Below are positions 2,343 to 63,322 of a stretch of DNA of 64,000 nt, one piece after another. Position numbers and translations under genes: made by a program. Location of the stretch: the NCBI GenBank assembly GCA_028715785.1, contig JAQURC010000002.1, forward strand, positions 8,402 to 72,401, in the 5' to 3' direction. Origin of the DNA: Candidatus Omnitrophota bacterium. GTDB lineage: Bacteria; Omnitrophota; Gorgyraeia; Gygaellales; Profunditerraquicolaceae. Position 1 is the stretch's first letter. Each line of letters begins with the position of its first letter. The notes under the pieces are model-generated. The model worked only from the letters and a program-made list of their open reading frames with translations, was not told the DNA's origin and made no database searches.

Positions 2343-4544
2343 ATGGAAAGAAAGCTGACCTATAAAATATTGCTTATCTTAGGCGTAATTGGATTGTGCG
2401 CATATTATACCTTTCCCCTGAGTAAGCATATTAACCTGGGCCTGGATTTGCAGGGAGGGATGCATCTGTTGCTTAAAGTTGATACCAGTCATCTTGAGGG
2501 AAAGGCAAAATTAGATGCCTGTGACCGGGCAGTCGAGGTTATCCGTAACCGCATCGATGAGTTCGGGGTCAGGGAGACTTCCATTCAAAAGCAGGGCGAG
2601 GATGAAATTGTAGTGCAGCTTCCCGGGGTTACTGACCGGCAGCGCGCCATTGATTTAATCGGTAAAACCGCAATGCTTGAATTTAAAGTTGTCTCCAATG
2701 ATGCGGATAAGCTCAAGGAGTCAATCGCCGGCACGATCCCTGAAGGTTATGAATTAAAATATTCTCAGGAAGAGAATGAGCCGTTATTGCTTGAGAAGAA
2801 AACCGTTTTAGTCGGGGATTCTTTAACCGATGCTTCGGTGCGTTTTGATCAAAGCCAATTCAGCGAGCCGATTGTTGCTTTACAGTTTAACGCCGCAGGC
2901 TCCAAGAAATTTGCCGAAATAACCGCGGCAAATGTAGGAAAGCGCCTGGCGATTGTCCTGGATGGAAAGGTGCAGTCAGCGCCCAGGATCAGGGAGGCGA
3001 TCCCTTCAGGGGAGGCGGTAATTACCGGCAGGTTTGATGTTCAAACTGCCCAGGACCTGGCCTTAGTTTTAAGGGTAGGGGCCTTACCTGCGCCAATGCA
3101 TATTGAGGAGGAAAGGACAATCGGCCCGTTATTGGGGCAGGATTCGATAAGTAAAGGAGTTAAGGCCTGCATTATCGGCATCGGCTTAGTTTTTATTTTT
3201 ATGGCTGTTTATTACCTTTTAGCCGGGATCGTTGCCAATATCGCCCTTATGCTTAACCTGCTTATAATCTTAGGATCGTTGGGCATGCTTCCTTTAATAT
3301 TTCCCGGCATATCCGCCACTTTGACTCTTCCGGGGATTGCCGGTATCGCTCTTTCTTTAGGTATGGCAGTAGATGCCAACGTCTTGATTAATGAGCGCAT
3401 AAGAGAAGAGTTGGCCGCGGGCAGAAGTTTACGCCTGGCAATAACCAACGGATATGGGAGGGCTTTTAGCGCCATATTCGATTCAAACCTTACTACCTTA
3501 ATTGCCGCGTTCCTTTTGTTCCAATTTGGCACCGGGCCCATAAGGGGTTTTGCGGTTACCTTAACCATCGGTTTGATTGCCAGCATGTTTACCGCTATTA
3601 TCGTAACCAGGGTAATCTTTGAACTCCTTTTAAATTCGGGAATCCTGAAATCATTGCCGATGTTAAAGTTGATCAAGGATACAAAAATAGATTTTATTAG
3701 CAAAAGAAAGATTTTTTATGCGCTTTCTATTGTAGTTACGGTAGTAGGGTTGGTTTCGTTCTTAATGAAAGGGAGCAAGGCTTACGGTATAGATTTTTCC
3801 GGAGGGCAGCTCCAGGAGTATATGTTTAAGGCCCCGCCTTCTGTTGATAAGGTTAGAAAGGTTTTAGACCAGATAAATCTCAGTAACGCTTCCATACAGC
3901 AGTTCAAAGACAACCCGAATGTTTTACTGATCAGGACCTCTGAAGATAAGAATGAGATATTGACTAAGGAACTAAAACAAAGTTTTCCCCAGGATGATAT
4001 TCAAGTTTTAAGGATCGAGCGCGTTGGCCCTGTAGCGGGAAAACACTTAAGGGATAAGGCGGTGCTGGCGCTTTTCTGGGCGTTGGCAGGGATCCTTATT
4101 TACGTTGCTTTCAGGTTCAAGCATTTTAACTTTGCGATCGCCGGGATTATCGCTCTTCTTCATGATGTTTTAGTTTCTTTGGGCATGCTTTCCCTGACCG
4201 GCAGGCAAATAGACCTTTTAAGCGTCACTGCTTTTTTAACTATTGCCGGCTATTCAATAAATGATACGATTGTTATTTATGACCGGGTGCGGGAAAATGC
4301 CAAGTTTTACCGCAAATTGAATCTTTATGAATTGATAAACCTAAGCGTGAATCAATGTTTGGGGAGGACGCTGCTTACCAGCGGAGTTACCTTGTTGTGC
4401 GTTTTGGCAATATTTTTATACGGTGGGGAGATCCTCGGTAATTTTTCTTTTGCTTTGTTAGTTGGTTTTTTCTGCGGAGCTTATTCTACGGTTTATATCG
4501 CTTCACCGCTGGTGCTTGCTTGGAGCCGCAAAAGCTCTAAATAA
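2343..4544 (+). CDS. secDF: protein translocase subunit SecDF (fused SecD-SecF)
   Basis: 733 aa; SecD periplasmic domain plus two six-TM halves; yajC-secDF synteny. Confidence 0.9.
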   Translation: MERKLTYKILLILGVIGLCAYYTFPLSKHINLGLDLQGGMHLLLKVDTSHLEGKAKLDACDRAVEVIRNRIDEFGVRETSIQKQGEDEIVVQLPGVTDRQRAIDLIGKTAMLEFKVVSNDADKLKESIAGTIPEGYELKYSQEENEPLLLEKKTVLVGDSLTDASVRFDQSQFSEPIVALQFNAAGSKKFAEITAANVGKRLAIVLDGKVQSAPRIREAIPSGEAVITGRFDVQTAQDLALVLRVGALPAPMHIEEERTIGPLLGQDSISKGVKACIIGIGLVFIFMAVYYLLAGIVANIALMLNLLIILGSLGMLPLIFPGISATLTLPGIAGIALSLGMAVDANVLINERIREELAAGRSLRLAITNGYGRAFSAIFDSNLTTLIAAFLLFQFGTGPIRGFAVTLTIGLIASMFTAIIVTRVIFELLLNSGILKSLPMLKLIKDTKIDFISKRKIFYALSIVVTVVGLVSFLMKGSKAYGIDFSGGQLQEYMFKAPPSVDKVRKVLDQINLSNASIQQFKDNPNVLLIRTSEDKNEILTKELKQSFPQDDIQVLRIERVGPVAGKHLRDKAVLALFWALAGILIYVAFRFKHFNFAIAGIIALLHDVLVSLGMLSLTGRQIDLLSVTAFLTIAGYSINDTIVIYDRVRENAKFYRKLNLYELINLSVNQCLGRTLLTSGVTLLCVLAIFLYGGEILGNFSFALLVGFFCGAYSTVYIASPLVLAWSRKSSK

Positions 4545-4549
4545 AAAAT

Positions 4550-4600
4550 GGGGACGGTTCTATTTTTCTAAATTAAATCGGGAAAAATAGAACCGTCCCC
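4550..4600. repeat. 19-bp perfect inverted repeat hairpin (GGGGACGGTTCTATTTTTC / GAAAAATAGAACCGTCCCC, 13-nt loop); member of a long-hairpin repeat family; possible terminator for secDF
   Basis: Read directly; related copy at 62613-62691. Confidence 0.6.
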
Positions 4601-4611
4601 ATCCATTCAAT

Positions 4612-8367: not shown

Positions 8368-9158
8368 GCCAGAATTTTCTTACCGATAAAAATATTCAGA
8401 AAAAAATAATCCGCGCCTGCGGCCTGACCAATGAGGATATCGTTTTAGAGATAGGCGCCGGATACGGGGGTTTTAGCGCCCAGCTTGCGCCTTGCCTAAA
8501 GAAGCTCTATGCCCTTGAGATCGATTGGCGCCTGTATCCGGATCTTGAAAAAAATTTAAGCGCCTACAACAATTGTAAAATTATAAAAAGCGATATATTA
8601 AAATTTGAAATAACCGGATTTCTGCAGGAAGAAAAAATAAAACAAAAAATAAAAGTTATCGGCAATATCCCCTATTATATATCCAGTCCGATTATCGAAC
8701 ATCTGATCAATTATCGTAATAATATCGGTGAGGTTTTTATGACGGTGCAAAAAGAGTTCGGCCGCAGGGTTTGCGCTGTCCCCGGGTCAAAAGAATACGG
8801 ATCTTTCAGCTGTTTTGCGCAATATTACGCCCGGTGCAGGGTCCTTTTTGAAATCAACAAAAGATGCTTTAATCCCGTCCCAAAAGTAGATTCGTCTTTT
8901 TTATCGCTGAAGTTCAGGGAAAAGCCGGCTGTTAACGTAGGGGATGAGACGCTGTTCTTTAAGTTGATCCGCGCTGCTTTTAACCAGAGAAGGAAAACTT
9001 TACGCAACAGCCTGGAAGGCTTGCTGGACCGGCAGGAGTTAGAAAGGGTCCTGGATAGCGCCGGTATTAATAGGAATGTGCGCCCGGAGGATCTTTCCCT
9101 GGAGCAGTTGGCAAATTTGAGCAATTCCTTAAAATCATTACAGTTAAGCGTTCATTAA
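8340..9158 (+). CDS. rsmA: 16S rRNA (adenine1518/1519-N6)-dimethyltransferase RsmA/KsgA
   Basis: LGQNFLTD, VLEIGAGYG, GNIPYYISSPI motifs. Confidence 0.9.
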   Translation: MRIKPKKSLGQNFLTDKNIQKKIIRACGLTNEDIVLEIGAGYGGFSAQLAPCLKKLYALEIDWRLYPDLEKNLSAYNNCKIIKSDILKFEITGFLQEEKIKQKIKVIGNIPYYISSPIIEHLINYRNNIGEVFMTVQKEFGRRVCAVPGSKEYGSFSCFAQYYARCRVLFEINKRCFNPVPKVDSSFLSLKFREKPAVNVGDETLFFKLIRAAFNQRRKTLRNSLEGLLDRQELERVLDSAGINRNVRPEDLSLEQLANLSNSLKSLQLSVH

Positions 9159-23145: not shown

Positions 23146-23196
23146 ACACCCCGCGCTTATAAGGAATTGCGCGGGTGTGCCCCTAGGGGCAAGGAG
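23146..23196 (+). repeat. gene-proximal two-hairpin+SD element (upstream of tuf)
   Basis: CACCCCGCGCTTATAAGGAATTGCGCGGGTGTGCCCCTAGGGGCAAGGAGG. Confidence 0.75.
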
Positions 23197-23204
23197 GATA
23201 AAAA

Positions 23205-24407
23205 ATGGCTAAAGAAAAATTCGTAAGGAGCAAGCCGCACGTAAATATCGGGACCATCGGGCACATCGATCACGGTAAAACTACCCTTACCGCCGCTATC
23301 TGCAATGTTCTTTCAAAGCTTGGAAAAGCTACTGCCAGGGATTACGCGGATATCGCCAAAGGCGGAACAGTAAGAGATGACACCAAGGTTGTGACTATCT
23401 CTGTCGCTCACGTAGAATATGAAACAGACAGCCGCCACTACGCGCATATTGACTGCCCGGGCCACGCGGATTATATCAAGAACATGATTACCGGCGCCGC
23501 CCAGATGGACGGGGCAATTTTGGTTGTCTCGGCAGCTGACGGCCCCATGCCTCAGACTAGAGAGCATATACTTTTAGCCCGCCAGGTAAACGTGCCGGCG
23601 ATGGTCGTGTTCATGAATAAGGTTGATTTAGTTGATGACAAAGAGCTTCTGGACCTGGTGGAGATGGAGATCAGGGACCTTTTAACCAAATATGGGTATC
23701 CGGGAGACAAAACTCCGATTATCCGCGGCAGTTCAAATAAAGCCTATGCGGCAACTGACCCTAATAGCCCGGAGGCCAAACCGATTCTGGATTTAATGAA
23801 AGCGGTTGATGAGTTTATTCCTCTTCCCCCCAGGGAGTTAGACAAACCTTTACTTATGGCAGTCGAAGATGTTTTTAGTATTGAAGGCAGGGGTACCGTG
23901 GCAACCGGAAGGATCGAGCGCGGTAAGGTTAAAGTCGGAGAAGAAGTCGAGATTATCGGTTTAAGGCCGGAGCCCAAGAAATCCGTGGTTACCGGAATCG
24001 AAATGTTCCGCAAGCTATTGGATGAAGGTCAGGCCGGAGATAACGTCGGTTTGCTTTTAAGAGGCGTGGAAAAGAATGATGTTGAGCGTGGGATGGTTAT
24101 CGCCGCTCCAAAATCCATTCATCCTCATACGAAATTCAAGGCCCAGGTTTACATCCTGACCAAAGAAGAAGGCGGAAGGCACACTCCATTTTTCAAGGGG
24201 TACAGGCCTCAGTTCTATTTTCGCACAACAGATGTAACCGGTACAGCCGGACTTCCCGCTAACGTCGAAATGGTTATGCCCGGTGACAACGTGGCTTTGG
24301 ATGTCGAATTGATTACTCCGATTGCCATTGAGAAGGAATCGCGTTTTGCTATCCGTGAAGGCGGCCATACAGTGGGAGCAGGCGTAGTTACCGAGGTTAT
24401 TGCATAA
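23205..24407 (+). CDS. tuf: elongation factor Tu
   Basis: 400 aa; [22 protein letters not shown]. Confidence 0.97.
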
Positions 24408-30689: not shown

Positions 30690-30875
30690 ATGGCAAAGAA
30701 TTCACAAATCGCAAGATGGAAAAGAAAGCCTAAGTTTTCAACTCGTAAGTACAATCGTTGTTCAATTTGCGGCAGAAGCGGCGGTTACTTAAGAAGGTTT
30801 CAGCTTTGCCGTATTTGTTTTAGAGAGCTGGTTTGGCAGGGGCTTATCCCCGGCGTTAAAAAAGCCAGCTGGTAG
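30690..30875 (+). CDS. rpsZ: 30S ribosomal protein S14 type Z (zinc-binding)
   Basis: 61 aa; [20 protein letters not shown]. Confidence 0.93.
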
Positions 30876-30878
30876 ATT

Positions 30879-30929
30879 ACACCCCGCGCTTATAATGAAT
30901 TGCGCGGGTGTGCCCGTGTGGGCTAGGAG
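30879..30929 (+). repeat. gene-proximal two-hairpin+SD element (upstream of rpsH)
   Basis: CACCCCGCGCTTATAATGAATTGCGCGGGTGTGCCCGTGTGGGCTAGGAG. Confidence 0.75.
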
Positions 30930-30934
30930 AATAA

Positions 30935-31330
30935 ATGTCCAGGACAGATTTAATCGCAGATGTTTTTACAATCATACGTAATGCAATATTGATTAAACGG
31001 GATACCGTGGATCTTCCGGCTTCCGGTAACATCAAATCGATTATGGCTATTCTTAAAAAGAATGAATACATCGATAATTTTAAGCTGATTGAAGATAAAA
31101 AGCAGGGATTGGTAAGGGTTTATTTAAAGTATACCGCCGGAAAATCAGCTATCCGCAATATCAAGCGGGTTTCCCGGCCGGGTTTGAGGGTTTATGCTCG
31201 AGGCAAAAAGGTCCCCACAGTTTTGCGCGGCAGGGGCCTGGCAATCGTTTCTACTTCTAAGGGCGTAATCACCGATAAAGAAGCCAGGGAGTTGGGTGTG
31301 GGTGGCGAAGTTATTGGTTATATTTGGTAA
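30935..31330 (+). CDS. rpsH: 30S ribosomal protein S8
   Basis: MSRTDLIADVFTIIRNA... S8 family. Confidence 0.95.
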   Translation: MSRTDLIADVFTIIRNAILIKRDTVDLPASGNIKSIMAILKKNEYIDNFKLIEDKKQGLVRVYLKYTAGKSAIRNIKRVSRPGLRVYARGKKVPTVLRGRGLAIVSTSKGVITDKEARELGVGGEVIGYIW

Positions 31331-42004: not shown

Positions 42005-42053
42005 CACCCCGCGCTTATAAGGAATTGCGCGGGTGTGCCCGTGTGGGCAAGGA
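42005..42053 (+). repeat. gene-proximal two-hairpin+SD element (upstream of pilT)
   Basis: CACCCCGCGCTTATAAGGAATTGCGCGGGTGTGCCCGTGTGGGCAAGGAGG. Confidence 0.75.
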
Positions 42054-42060
42054 GGAATTG

Positions 42061-47007: not shown

Positions 47008-47056
47008 CACCCCGCGCTTAGAGGAGTTGCGCGGGTGTGCCCTGGTGGGCAAGGAG
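47008..47056 (+). repeat. gene-proximal two-hairpin+SD element (upstream of lipoyl-domain gene)
   Basis: CACCCCGCGCTTAGAGGAGTTGCGCGGGTGTGCCCTGGTGGGCAAGGAGG. Confidence 0.75.
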
Positions 47057-47062
47057 GTTACC

Positions 47063-51854: not shown

Positions 51855-51867
51855 AATTAGACAATTT

Positions 51868-52100
51868 GGTAAACTTATAGGTTAAGGGAAATCCGTAAAT
51901 ACGGATGCGGTCCCGCCGCTGTAAGGGCAGACGAAAACTGCATAAGTCACTGTCTTTAGTGTTAAAGACGGGAAGACGCAGTAAGTAGGTTAGAAGCCCA
52001 AGCCAGAAGACCTGCCTATATAAAGAATGGTAATGCCTCGTGGAATGGGTTAAGAAATATTTGGGTGCAACCCGTCAGCAACTGTGGCGGGTTTTTTGTT
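51868..52100 (+). promoter_or_regulatory. cobalamin (B12) riboswitch with intrinsic-terminator expression platform
   Basis: AAGGGAA, CCCGCCGCTGTAAG, GTCACTG (B12 box), GGGAAG, GACCTGCC conserved blocks; terminator ACCCGTCA-GCAACTG-TGGCGGGT + TTTTTTGTTT at 52069-52100. Confidence 0.6.
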
Positions 52101-60502: not shown

Positions 60503-62602
60503 ATGGGTTTTGACCTGTTGTTGTTGGCGCCGGTTGGTTCGATATTGGCTTTGAGTTTCGCTTTTTATCTGGCCTTGAGTATTTTGAAAATGGATGAGGG
60601 CACGGATAAGATGAAGGAGATTGCCCAGGCGGTGCGCGTTGGCGCCCAGGCCTATTTAAAAAGGCAGTATCTGGGTGTCTCGATGTTTTTTATTGTGGTG
60701 TTTTTCATTCTTCTGGCGATGGCTATGAAGAATTATCTGGTCATCTTTGTGCCGTTTGCTTTTTTAACCGGCGGTTTCTTTTCAGGCTTGTCCGGTTTTA
60801 TCGGGATGACTATTGCCACCCAGTCCTCTAACCGTACCGCCCAAGCCGCGTCTAAGAGTTTGAATTCCGGCCTGCGCGTTGCTTTTTCCAGCGGGGCAGT
60901 TATGGGGCTTACCGTGGTCGGTTTAGGGCTATTGGATTTGAGTATCTGGTATTATTTTTTAAATTGGTATTATTCTTGCCATCCTACCCCGCTGGGAACG
61001 GATAAGATCGCGGCAATTACTTCAACTATGCTTTGCTTTGGTATGGGCGCCAGCTCGATGGCGCTTTTTGCCAGGGTCGGCGGAGGTATTTTTACTAAAG
61101 CCGCGGATGTCGGCGCGGACTTAGTCGGGAAGGTTGAGGCGGGAATCCCCGAGGACGATCCGCGCAACCCGGCAGTTATCGCTGATAATGTCGGCGATAA
61201 TGTCGGCGATGTCGCGGGTATGGGCGCTGACCTTTACGAGTCTTATGTCGGTTCCATTGTCGCCACTTCGGCTTTAGGCGTTGCCGCCGGCCTCGGTGTT
61301 GCCGGGGTGACTGTGCCGATGGTTATGGCCGCGGTAGGGGTTATCTCTTCGATTATCGGAACATTTTTTGTTAAAAGCGGAGAACAGGCCAGCCAAAAAG
61401 TTCTTTTGGCAGCTTTACGTAAAGGAGTCTTTACCAGTTCATTTATCGTCGCGGTAATCTCATTTTTTCTGGTTAAAGCAACATTGGGCGCCGGGAATTT
61501 AGGCGTTTATTGGTCGGTATTGGCGGGTTTAGTTGCCGGAGTATTGATTGGTTTGTGTACGGAGTATTATACTTCCAGCGGTTTTAAGCCAACGCGTTCA
61601 ATTGCCGATGCTTCTTTAACCGGCCCGGCAACCGTAATTATCGGCGGTATCGCGGTAGGGATGATGTCCACGGCTATTCCGGTAATTATCGTATGCATTG
61701 CTATTTTAATAAGTTTTTATTTATCCGGCGGGGCGGCTAATTTTAACGCCGGCCTTTACGGTATCGCCATTTCAGCAGTAGGGATGCTTTCTACTTTAGG
61801 TATAACTTTGGCTACTGATGCTTATGGCCCGGTCGCGGATAATGCCGGAGGAAACGCCGAGATGTCAAAGCTTCCTCCTGAAGTAAGGAAGAGAACTGAT
61901 GCCCTGGATGCTTTGGGTAATACGACCGCGGCAACCGGTAAAGGTTTTGCCATTGGTTCAGCAGCCCTGACAGCATTAGCTTTGATTGCCGCGTATAAAG
62001 ATCAAGTTTTGCTTTTTGGCAGGGATATTAATGCCAGTATGATGAATCCTACGGTGTTAATAGGTTTATTTCTAGGCGGAATGCTGCCGTTTTTATTCTG
62101 CTCTATGACTATGCGCGCCGTAGGAAGGGCAGCGGGTAAAATTGTCGTGGAAGTCCGCCGGCAGTTTAAGGAGATCATTGGTCTGATGGAAGGCACAGCT
62201 AAGCCTGATTACGCGCGTTGCGTAAGCATTGCCACTGCGGCAGCGCAAAAAGAAATGATCGCTCCTTCACTTTTAGCAATCGCGGCTCCAATAGGTGTGG
62301 GGTTACTGATAGGTATTGACGCGGTTGCCGGGCTTCTGGTTGGGGCAACGGTTACCGGATTTGTTTTAGCGGTTATGATGGCTAATTCCGGAGGCGCCTG
62401 GGATAATGCCAAGAAGTTTGTGGAAGAAGGGCATCATGGCGGTAAAGGCTCAAATGCCCATAAAGCTACCGTGGTTGGCGATACAGTGGGCGATCCCTTT
62501 AAAGATACTTCCGGGCCAAGCTTAAATATTTTGATCAAGCTTATGTCCATGGTCTCCATTGTTTTTGCCTCATTTATTATTAAAAATACGTTATTTAAGT
62601 AA
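60503..62602 (+). CDS. hppA: membrane-bound H+(or Na+)-translocating pyrophosphatase
   Basis: 699 aa; GDNVGD (twice) and DNAGG signature motifs. Confidence 0.9.
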
Positions 62603-62612
62603 TTCAGGTTAA

Positions 62613-62700
62613 GGGACTGTTTCTATTTTTTCATTACGGTAGAGGAGGTTTAAACCTCCTCTACCGTTGAAAGAAAAATAGGACTGTCCCCTTGTTTTTG
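62613..62700. terminator. long imperfect hairpin (about 38-nt arms, inner perfect 15-bp palindrome CGGTAGAGGAGGTTT/AAACCTCCTCTACCG) followed by TTGTTTTTG; likely hppA terminator; related to hairpin at 4550-4600
   Basis: Read directly. Confidence 0.5.
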
Positions 62701-62709
62701 TGCTATAAT
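62701..62709 (+). promoter_or_regulatory. extended -10 (TGcTATAAT) placing TSS at or next to the ATG of the ECF sigma gene (leaderless mRNA)
   Basis: TATAAT 62704-62709; ATG 62717; no SD. Confidence 0.4.
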
Positions 62710-62716
62710 TACAGCC

Positions 62717-63322
62717 ATGGATGATTTGGGGTTTGTCCAAGGCTGCCTCAAGGGGAACAAGCAATCCTGGTCTGAATTCATCTCGCGTTATTCCCGCCTG
62801 ATCTATAACTATATCTATAGTGTTTTGGCTGTCAAAGGCCACACCGCTCCTGCGGAACAGGTCGAGGACATCTTCCAAGAAATATTTCACGCCTTAATCA
62901 AGGATAACTATAAAAAACTATCCACTTACCAGGCAAAAAACGGCTGTTCTTTAGCCAGTTGGCTTAGACAGGTTACGATTAATTTTACCATTGATTATTT
63001 ACGCAAACTTAAGCCCGCTGTATCCCTTGACGCGGAGAATGAGGAGGGTTTTAGTTTAGGGGATACTCTCAAGGATCTAACGGCCGGGGCAATTGAATTT
63101 CTTAATGATCAGGATCGCCGTAAGACTCTGCAGGAATGTATCAGCTTGCTTGAATCCGATGAACAGTTCTTTCTTGAACTATTCCTGAATCAAGAGTTAA
63201 GCCTGGAGGAGATCAAGGATTATTATAAAATTAACCGCGGAGCAGTGGATATGCGCAAAAGCAGGATATTCCAGAAATTGCAGGATTGTTTCAAAAATAA
63301 AGGTTTTACTGAGGCTCAGTAG
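62717..63322 (+). CDS. ECF-type RNA polymerase sigma-70 family factor
   Basis: 201 aa; region 2 (IFQEIFHALIKD) and region 4 HTH (LSLEEIKDYYKINRGAVDMRKSRIFQKL). Confidence 0.75.
   Translation: MDDLGFVQGCLKGNKQSWSEFISRYSRLIYNYIYSVLAVKGHTAPAEQVEDIFQEIFHALIKDNYKKLSTYQAKNGCSLASWLRQVTINFTIDYLRKLKPAVSLDAENEEGFSLGDTLKDLTAGAIEFLNDQDRRKTLQECISLLESDEQFFLELFLNQELSLEEIKDYYKINRGAVDMRKSRIFQKLQDCFKNKGFTEAQ

Follow-up and report, generated by a model that had tools for sequence, protein, structure and literature searches.

Two long hairpins were analyzed in a stretch of 64,000 nt from a Candidatus Omnitrophota bacterium (assembly GCA_028715785.1, contig JAQURC010000002.1, forward strand, positions 8,402 to 72,401), hereafter called the window. 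The first hairpin (site 1) lies between a gene encoding a SecDF fusion protein and an open reading frame (ORF) for an Mfd-like helicase. The second (site 2) follows the gene encoding an H+-pyrophosphatase (hppA) and precedes a gene for a sigma factor of the extracytoplasmic function (ECF) type (Table 1). Both hairpins are built from the arms of a dispersed repeat family, and in related genomes the same arms enclose the gene of a transposase. Very probably, both are non-autonomous miniature derivatives (REPIN-like 'TIR dimers', where TIR stands for terminal inverted repeat) of an element encoding a TIRYT/RAYT-like Y1 (HUH) transposase.

Site 1 is a perfect inverted repeat of 21 bp, in which 4548-4568 pairs with 4582-4602 around a loop of 13 nt. 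The original prediction had correctly described a perfect repeat at 4550-4600, but with a length of 19 bp. The hairpin starts 4-6 nt 3′ of the SecDF stop codon, and 9-11 nt separate its end from the start codon (ATG) of the Mfd-like ORF. Its predicted folding energy was −35.9 kcal/mol as RNA (z −8.3) and −23.1 kcal/mol as DNA (z −8.4), and 0 of 200 shuffled sequences folded as well in either case. The loop is a shortened member of one recurrent loop type and is homologous to TAATTTAAGTCTG, the loop found at the secDF-mfd junction in L128 (L-numbers denote loci fetched from related genomes and metagenomes). On the sense strand, an A tract stands before the hairpin and 3 T occur in the 8 nt after it, in agreement with the earlier remark that the first hairpin has no U tract; ATTTTTTATTT is carried by the antisense strand.

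Site 2 shares the outer arms of site 1, as had been proposed, but in decayed form, with an indel on the left and two mismatches on the right. The outer arms pair imperfectly, with 73% complementarity over 41-nt arms when the inner palindrome is included. The whole structure was predicted to fold with −48.5 kcal/mol as RNA (z −7.0) and with z −7.9 as DNA (0 of 200 shuffles as good in both cases). The palindrome inside the loop is perfect and nested, as described earlier; it measures 16+16 nt instead of 15 bp, however, and is a second, independent repeat family of the GTAG type rather than a variant of the outer element. Directly after the hairpin, TTGTTTTT comprises 7 T in 8 nt. We also noted an extended −10 element (TGCTATAAT, window 62701-62717) that precedes the start codon of the ECF-type sigma gene by 7 nt, an arrangement also present in L040, L049 and L071. 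The spacing between TGCTATAAT and the ATG leaves no space for a ribosome-binding site, which suggests a leaderless mRNA.

Table 1. Features of the two hairpin sites in the window and copies of the nested GTAG palindrome
Feature	Sequence	Position	Strand	Remark
SecDF fusion gene		2343..4544		directly upstream of the site 1 hairpin
SecDF stop codon	TAA	4542..4544		
Site 1, A-rich outer part of left arm	AAAAAAT	4543..4549		overlaps final two bases of the SecDF TAA; family logo
Site 1, left arm	GGGGACGGTTCTATTTTTC	4550..4568		0 mismatches to family consensus
Site 1, loop	TAAATTAAATCGG	4569..4581		reverse complement CCGATTTAATTTA resembles recurrent loop type CCGAGTnnAGTTCTA
Site 1, right arm	GAAAAATAGAACCGTCCCC	4582..4600		AT on each side extends the repeat to 21 bp
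Mfd-like helicase ORF, start	ATG	4612		
H+-pyrophosphatase gene (hppA)		60503..62602		just upstream of site 2
Site 2, decayed left arm	GGGACTGTTTCTATTTTTTC	62613..62632		indel and substitutions relative to consensus
Site 2, nested GTAG-type palindrome	ACGGTAGAGGAGGTTTAAACCTCCTCTACCGT	62636..62667		perfect 16+16 nt (32 nt), GTAG...CTAC, inside the outer loop
Site 2, right arm	GAAAAATAGGACTGTCCCC	62673..62691		2 mismatches relative to consensus and site 1 arm
T-rich tract	TTGTTTTTGTG	62692..62702	+ (hppA sense)	together with the hairpin, anatomy of an intrinsic terminator
GTAG family	(CA)ACnGTAGnGGAGGTTTAAACCTCCnCTACnGT(TG)	L006:7400, L008:5049/6647, L030:6227, L058:1466, L059:2294/5272		mostly solitary behind genes
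GTAG family, further copies	(CA)ACnGTAGnGGAGGTTTAAACCTCCnCTACnGT(TG)	L073:5532, L075:115/1382/5201, L098:5369, window 62636-62667		

The conserved unit of the main repeat family consists of 7 A-rich nt followed by the 19-mer found as the left arm of site 1. Complementarity between left and right flanks extends over 7 nt and falls to background from position 8, so that each arm spans ~26 nt. In the 64-kb window, the 19-mer gave 3 matches with at most 3 mismatches (0.02 expected; 0 of 100 shuffles reached 3). The window holds four arms, all intergenic, and no further hairpin copy besides the two. Beyond the window, in a set of one genome per species, the exact pattern GGGGACNGTYCTATTTTTC matched at least 115 genome blocks of 8 kb, which contained at least 306 arms (3 mismatches or fewer) and at least 111 hairpins; hairpin numbers per genome are lower bounds. 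Among the matches listed, most blocks came from metagenome-assembled genomes (MAGs) of Omnitrophota, many of them with several blocks per MAG. The listed matches also included Aminicenantes/Acidobacteriota (among them one closed chromosome of 4.35 Mb, and contigs with 65% G+C on which the flanking genes are native and high in G+C), Planctomycetota, Nitrospirota and others. The taxonomic assignment of a MAG contig is no more reliable than its binning. The free positions of the pattern were near-invariant in the listed matches (N = G in 97%, Y = T in 96%), indicating that these are relatives and not chance matches. The window DNA itself is 76-84% identical at the nucleotide level to several of the hairpin-bearing Omnitrophota MAGs. 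The original prediction had left room for the case that only two copies exist and that their sequence differs in relatives; instead, many copies were found in relatives, and both junctions were filled in every relative examined.

Loops of the family measure 0-90 nt (mode 15-18 nt) and fall into recurrent types. Beside inverted pairs, single arms and direct tandem arms occur, and many of the 'single' arms have shortened or decayed partners. At Rfam gathering thresholds, neither hairpin gave a match, and the window yielded only a cobalamin riboswitch and two tRNAs. A distant-mode search of phage and plasmid collections with a 71-nt consensus returned matches at chance level only, and the exact arm pattern matched once in the 2.9 million contigs of IMG/VR, so the family is not viral. 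Literature matches to the arm sequence were restricted to unrelated primers. Several irregular arrangements were also recorded. Direct tandem arms were present in a contig binned as an archaeon, and stuttered or tandem partial arm copies with an A/T tract (e.g. GAAAAATAGAACCGTCCCCTTTTTCTTT three times) occurred at L056:456-530, L040:5340-5430, L103:1935-2040 and L051:630-700. At L057:146-509, three hairpins with mirrored flanks form a near-perfect palindrome of ~360 bp, reflecting either real nesting or an assembly artefact. Two short contigs binned as Smithella and Bacteroidetes (L018 and L094) were 99% identical reverse complements, i.e. one sequence binned twice; part of the apparent spread across phyla is thus binning noise.

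The candidate enzyme emerged from a search of the six-frame ORFs of the fetched loci with E. coli RayT. This search detected a PF01797 protein of 225 aa in L112, where hairpins lie on both sides of its gene, and a second, more distant PF01797 protein in L063. The match to PF01797 (Y1/HUH domain) had an E-value of 9e-18. The L112 protein scored 66 bits with the NCBIfam RayT model (REP_Tyr_transpos, cut-off 80 bits) versus 28 bits with the IS200 model (cut-off 55 bits), and the L063 protein reached 86 bits with REP_Tyr_transpos. About 2,900 homologues of the L112 protein were found, the best named ones all from Omnitrophota, and most protein clusters were represented on one contig. In BLASTP, full-length alignments were obtained with the published TIRYTs sml1152 (44% identity, E 3e-53), pfs148A and gbm2474. 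The C-terminal 100 aa align with TIRYT C-termini, including the GRPxK motif, and only the catalytic core could be aligned with E. coli RayT and classical RAYTs.

The arms occupy fixed positions relative to the transposase gene. In five of five further loci, from different species and with unrelated neighbourhoods, an arm in + orientation lies 65-95 nt 5′ of the transposase ATG, while an arm in − orientation overlaps the end of the gene such that the TAG within GAAAAATAGAACCGTCCCC serves as stop codon. Another 80 loci came from scanning metagenomes with an alignment of these transposases. Among them, an upstream arm was found in 58 of 74 and a downstream arm in 61 of 78, and 47 of 72 had arms on both sides by a strict test; loci failing the test carried variant arms (GGGGACGCTTCGGGG, GGGACCGTTTCTATTT and GGGGACAGGTCCC) that match on both sides. 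The variable tetramer of the arms agreed between left and right in 41 of 49 loci. Of 10 free hairpins on transposase contigs, 8 matched the arm variant of the transposase on that contig exactly, and both non-matching hairpins, located in L196, look like a regex artefact. L123 carries two Y1 transposase paralogues 1 kb apart; the second (L123:4681-5373) has the same 5′ untranslated region (UTR) as the first but different arms (GGGGTCAGAATTATTTTT and AAAAATAATTCTGACCCC). In L065, a decayed transposase remnant is still followed 3′ by the right arm. Since the arms bound the transposase gene across loci, they represent its terminal inverted repeats, and the hairpins correspond to both ends joined by a short loop. 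We also observed that the transposase 5′UTR is strongly conserved over ~50 nt before the start codon (GTTAGATTTTnCCTCCTTTTACGTCTATTAAnAGTAGAAGGAGGnATTTTT-ATG; L118-L124, L131-L210). Translational self-limitation is suggested by its CCTCC, which can base-pair with the ribosome-binding site (GGAGG).

Several orthologous sites differ in occupancy. In LacPavin (L101), an insertion of ~93 nt bearing a hairpin lies between rpsL and rpsG, where the window has no hairpin. A hairpin in L006 corresponds to an empty site in L055, and one in L041 to an empty site in L082. At other orthologous sites, the family hairpin is swapped for a different hairpin, GGGACTGTCCCCgaaGGGGACTGTCCC or the GTAG-type palindrome GTAGGGGAGGTTTAAACCTCCCCT. 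Identical loops were found at L068:713 and L068:1153 as well as at L057:146, 455 and 3776, and loop subtypes are common to unrelated loci and genomes. Over 88 nt, the site 2 composite shares 88.6% identity with a composite that another species carries at a non-orthologous locus (L059). This recurrence, together with the repeated loops, indicates that miniature forms propagate as such. With respect to target-site duplication, no excess of direct repeats over shuffled partners was detected for boundary offsets of 0-11 nt and lengths of 2-8 nt.

Other junctions are persistently occupied. The hppA-sigma junction carries a family hairpin in four of four species, with conserved stems and unrelated loops. 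At the secDF-mfd junction, a family hairpin was present in six of six species (SecDF identity 94-80%); 98% of the cells in the aligned arms are paired, four pairs show changes in both partners, and none of 500 shuffles attained the covariation score. The compensatory variants at this junction (GGTTC/GAACC, GCTCC/GGAGC and GTTTC/GAAAC) are the same as those flanking transposase genes. One metagenome contains the GCTCC variant at secDF-mfd (L129) as well as on either side of a transposase (L184), which is suggestive only. The window and L128 have recognizably related loops at this junction, whereas a closer relative (L126) has another subtype, pointing to inheritance as well as replacement.

The GTAG palindromes follow a distribution of their own. 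In the fetched loci, 13 copies of GGAGGTTTAAACCTCC palindromes were found, 10 of them alone and 3 nested in the main hairpin family (window, L059 and L098). In L075, the GTAG palindrome stands alone at a site orthologous to that of a main-family hairpin in L063. A third GTAG palindrome (GTAGACCTACGCGGTCTACATATATGTAGACCGCGTAGGTCTAC) is nested likewise in L006, L041 and L057. Extruded hairpins may offer their loops as preferred targets in single-stranded form.

Copies of the main family are intergenic, mostly between co-directional or convergent genes, with 11 copies between divergent genes. Apparent copies within genes fell mostly in short or run-off ORFs of a crude ORF caller, and three implausible 8-kb ORFs in L009, L100 and L103 were disregarded. 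In 58 co-directional contexts, hairpins began a median of 12.5 nt past the stop codon and ended a median of 50 nt short of the following start. The flanking 8-nt segments of the sense strand contained on average 5.9 A ahead of the hairpin and 5.4 T behind it. The combination of A tract, GC-rich stem base and T tract gives each inserted copy the shape of a bidirectional intrinsic terminator. The genes beside hairpins (FabF, LeuCD, DegT, glycosyltransferases, Mfd) have no common function, and some copies lie inside conserved operons (rpsL-rpsG, secDF-mfd). With respect to transcription, F1 loops were mostly in sense orientation and F2 loops mixed, in too few independent copies for a trend. No DDE transposase recurred near the copies; the clusters formed by ~900 ORFs were limited to housekeeping genes, AAA_14/DUF4143 ATPases and ParE toxins. 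The AAA_14/DUF4143 ATPase, which was seen on four cross-phylum contigs (two of them the duplicates L018 and L094), and the ParE toxins had been considered as partners of the hairpins and were dropped as ordinary accessory genes.

Site 2 and most family members have an anatomy that suits terminators, one role originally considered for both hairpins, but the sense strand of site 1 does not. The placement of both at operon ends needs correction: site 1 is probably not an operon end, as mfd begins 11 nt past the hairpin and only 3 of the 8 nt behind it are T on the sense strand. In all six species compared, mfd starts 10-20 nt past the hairpin, which leaves no space for a promoter, and transcription must traverse copy 1. 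Most likely, copy 2 would terminate hppA transcription, with the promoter of the sigma gene following the T tract. For copy 1, a predicted role as a 3′ stabilizing or protective hairpin or as a partial attenuator within the operon is more likely, or it may merely be tolerated without effect. Repetitive extragenic palindromes (REPs) within E. coli operons provide an analogue. REPs are reported to lie mostly downstream of ORFs and to act as RNA elements (PMC3733652).

Taken together, we propose the following scheme. The full element, which was seen in related Omnitrophota genomes and not in the window, consists of 7 A-rich nt and GGGGACGGTTCTATTTTT, the conserved 5′UTR of ~50 nt, the ORF of 225 aa, and GAAAAATAGAACCGTCCCC followed by 7 T-rich nt; a cognate PF01797 gene elsewhere in this genome would be bounded by GGGGACGGTTCTATTTTT and AAAAATAGAACCGTCCCC. 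The hairpins would be the two arms joined by a short loop, the counterpart of REPINs or of the 'TIR dimers' of TIRtrons. By analogy with IS200/IS605 TnpA and RAYT enzymes, the transposase may recognize the arms folded as a long hairpin on single-stranded DNA and may move or copy hairpins in trans without target-site duplication. Copies shaped as terminators would then accumulate right behind stop codons.

A number of points weigh against this scheme. The window contains no transposase gene. In L112, a hairpin follows almost every gene, and with hairpins this ubiquitous the flanking of the transposase there alone proves little. Selection by the host for the hairpin could, in place of transposition, explain why it persists at the two junctions and shows compensatory changes there. 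Pfam searches with three members of the transposase family at E up to 10 returned Y1_Tnp only and no C-terminal helix-turn-helix (HTH) domain, and the arm start GGGGACGG agrees with the TIRYT motif GGGG[AT][CG]A[CG] at 7 of 8 positions, with G for A at position 7. A simple terminator scan called neither window site, the loops being beyond its limits, and the stems (19-26 bp) are much longer than those of typical intrinsic terminators; a terminator function is predicted from anatomy. Cleavage sites and exact element ends are likewise putative. To our knowledge, no TIRYT activity has been demonstrated experimentally.

The hairpins might instead be ordinary intrinsic terminators or attenuators of the host, kept by selection and alike through common descent and structural constraint, with the transposase merely flanked by the usual hairpin of its lineage. 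The A tract, GC-rich stem base and T tract, the median position 12.5 nt past stop codons, the filling of both junctions in all relatives examined with compensatory stem changes, and the hairpins after most L112 genes agree with this view. We nevertheless consider it improbable. The transposase stop codon lies in the right arm and the left arm stands at 65-95 nt from the ATG in dozens of species with unrelated neighbourhoods; moreover, a paralogous transposase has its own distinct arms, and arm variants co-vary with the transposase. Termination would be harmful in conserved operons such as rpsL-rpsG and secDF-mfd; the 11 copies between divergent genes speak against it as well, and the identity of 19 nt across phyla exceeds what selection on structure alone predicts. 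Hairpins might also have arisen in situ, each as a deletion remnant of a full-length element and not as a miniature mobilized in trans. Arms identical to the ends of the full element and the decayed transposase of L065 with its right arm still following are what such decay would leave behind. However, loop types recur across unrelated loci and genomes, the composite of copy 2 recurs at the non-orthologous L059 site, and the transposase usually occupies one contig per cluster in comparison with dozens of hairpins per MAG, so that we give this origin little credence.

Dispersed copies with terminal inverted repeats around a short internal segment would also be expected of classical miniature inverted-repeat transposable elements (MITEs) moved by a DDE transposase that recognizes these repeats. 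As target-site duplications are absent, no DDE transposase recurs nearby and the arms flank a Y1 transposase, we regard this as highly improbable. The same applies to the view that the 19-mer is a signal for a host protein (a DNA-uptake sequence, an operator or the site of a nucleoid protein) whose inverted pairs double as terminators, for which we see next to no likelihood. DNA uptake sequences (DUS/USS) occur at about one copy per kb, many of them in genes, unlike the low density (2 hairpins per 64 kb) and nearly exclusively intergenic location observed here. Single arms and direct tandem arms would suit a host signal, and uptake sequences of the Neisseria and Haemophilus type pair up in terminators (PMC1852404). 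Yet the neighbouring genes have no common function, many 'single' arms have shortened or decayed partners, and the linkage to the transposase accounts for the conservation. Two further candidates were dropped: integron attC sites, given the lack of R/L box motifs, the perfect stems and the core-gene contexts, and a tRNA/tmRNA acceptor-like reading of GGGGACG...CGTCCCC, abandoned after the transposase linkage was found.

Derivation of the hairpins from a TIRYT/RAYT-like element also permits wider interpretations. The Omnitrophota transposase could be a domesticated 'curator' of genome-wide terminator or attenuator hairpins at fixed junctions, which it would rewrite to its own arm variant. This reading is unlikely; it fits the occupancy of secDF-mfd and hppA-sigma in every species examined, the compensatory arm changes, the variants shared with transposase genes and the GCTCC variant in L129 and L184. 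It is also possible that elements were transferred between these tiny cells, which may be attached to hosts, and their neighbours, which would account for the near-identical arms of Aminicenantes, Planctomycetota and others.

Some additional elements of the window were recorded. Another repeat family, CACCCCGCGCTTATAAGGAATTGCGCGGGTGTGCCC-N3-4-GGGCAAGGAGG, forms two adjacent small hairpins and occurs at 23146-23198, 30873-30937, 42005-42056 and 47008-47057 of the window and at L068:6819-6876. It ends in a ribosome-binding site 5-8 nt before the next ATG (e.g. of the gene at 23205), shares 84-94% identity with a copy from another Omnitrophota MAG and looks like a conserved 5′UTR module. At 1609-1702, between an ORF ending at 1617 and a small ORF at 1724 (ribosomal protein S16, by synteny with L126), an inverted repeat of 26 nt rich in TAATG/CATTA was detected, with 85% complementarity and arms 42 nt apart (TTTGTATAATGCATAATGTGTAATGC ... 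GCATTACACATTTAACATTACACAAA). The cobalamin riboswitch (88 bits) is located at 51862-52033, upstream of ORFs starting at 52084.

With this interpretation, two conspicuous hairpins are explained as products of a mobile element and not as bespoke regulatory sites. For the annotation of Omnitrophota-type MAGs, the 19-mer can serve as a marker of gene ends and of the linked transposase. TIRYT transposases had been regarded in published work as poor sources of repeat families; a TIRYT-type gene tied to an abundant, phylum-wide family of dimers with co-varying arms offers a natural system for the study of end recognition, and elements that arrive in the shape of terminators are a case of mobile DNA supplying transcription punctuation.

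Of the three options considered initially (terminators, protein-binding palindromes and MITE-like elements), the last comes closest, insofar as the copies are dispersed and numerous and have arms that form the terminal inverted repeats of a transposase gene, but the enzyme is of the Y1/HUH and not the DDE type, and target-site duplications were not found. The proper comparison is therefore with REPIN/RAYT or TIRtron/TIRYT systems, and not with classical MITEs. In common with IS200/IS605 elements and their miniature derivatives (PATEs), the family has a PF01797 enzyme, no target-site duplication, hairpin-forming ends and, by homology, presumably a mechanism on single-stranded DNA. IS200/IS605 elements, however, carry subterminal hairpins in direct orientation and no terminal inverted repeats, whereas the ends are mutually complementary here; the protein stays well below the IS200 cut-off and appears single-copy. 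Bidirectional intrinsic terminators and REPs acting as 3′UTR regulators in E. coli share the A tract, the GC-rich stem base, the T tract and the position just behind stop codons, but differ from the long stems of conserved sequence and from copy 1 with its lack of a sense-strand T tract.

The following features are shared with REPIN-RAYT systems (Bertels & Rainey 2011, PMC3116915; PMC3337134): (i) two inverted short repeats and a spacer form a hairpin; (ii) copies are extragenic, numerous and non-autonomous; (iii) target-site duplications are absent; (iv) a Y1 transposase gene is flanked by the same repeats; (v) singlets look like decayed remnants; and (vi) the system persists over long evolutionary times. 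The differences are that the arm has no GTAG tag and is not a convincing self-palindrome (the nested GTAG/CTAC palindrome belongs to another family), that the transposase is of the longer TIRYT type with a match to E. coli RayT in the core only, and that several phyla have near-identical arms, in contrast to the usual lineage specificity of REPIN sequences.

RAYT-like genes with long terminal inverted repeats have been described as 'TIRtrons' encoding 'TIRYTs' (Di Nocera, De Gregorio & Rocco 2013, PMC3733652), which have been equated with subclass 2.1 of the TnpA_REP-like Y1 proteins (Quentin et al. 2018, PMC6006769). Their TIRs often have the sequence GGGGWSAS, sometimes overlap the 3′ end of the gene and in some moderately abundant families occur as dimers (PMC3733652). 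TIR families are described as only moderately abundant and confined to few genomes, and no repeats were found close to most subclass 2.1 genes (PMC3733652, PMC6006769), and subclass 2.1 proteins have a C-terminal HTH-like extension (Bac_DnaA_C, HTH_23 or HTH_28; PMC6006769). The system described here differs in that many Omnitrophota species have abundant dimers, located at conserved junctions between genes, in that the C-terminal HTH is not recognized by Pfam, and in that the host phylum is not among the published ones. It agrees with TIRtrons in the Y1/HUH transposase of ~220 aa that aligns over its full length (a comparison made in the related genomes only), in the long terminal inverted repeats starting with GGGG, and not GTAG REPs, that bound the gene, in the dispersal of TIRs as singles, dimers and clusters, and in paralogues with TIRs of their own, one of which starts with GGGGTCAG and fits GGGGWSAS in full. 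The system works like REPIN-RAYT and does not belong to the IS200/IS605 elements, DDE MITEs, uptake sequences or attC sites; the hairpins fit the TIRtron/TIRYT kind, a known type of element in a group from which it had not been described before.

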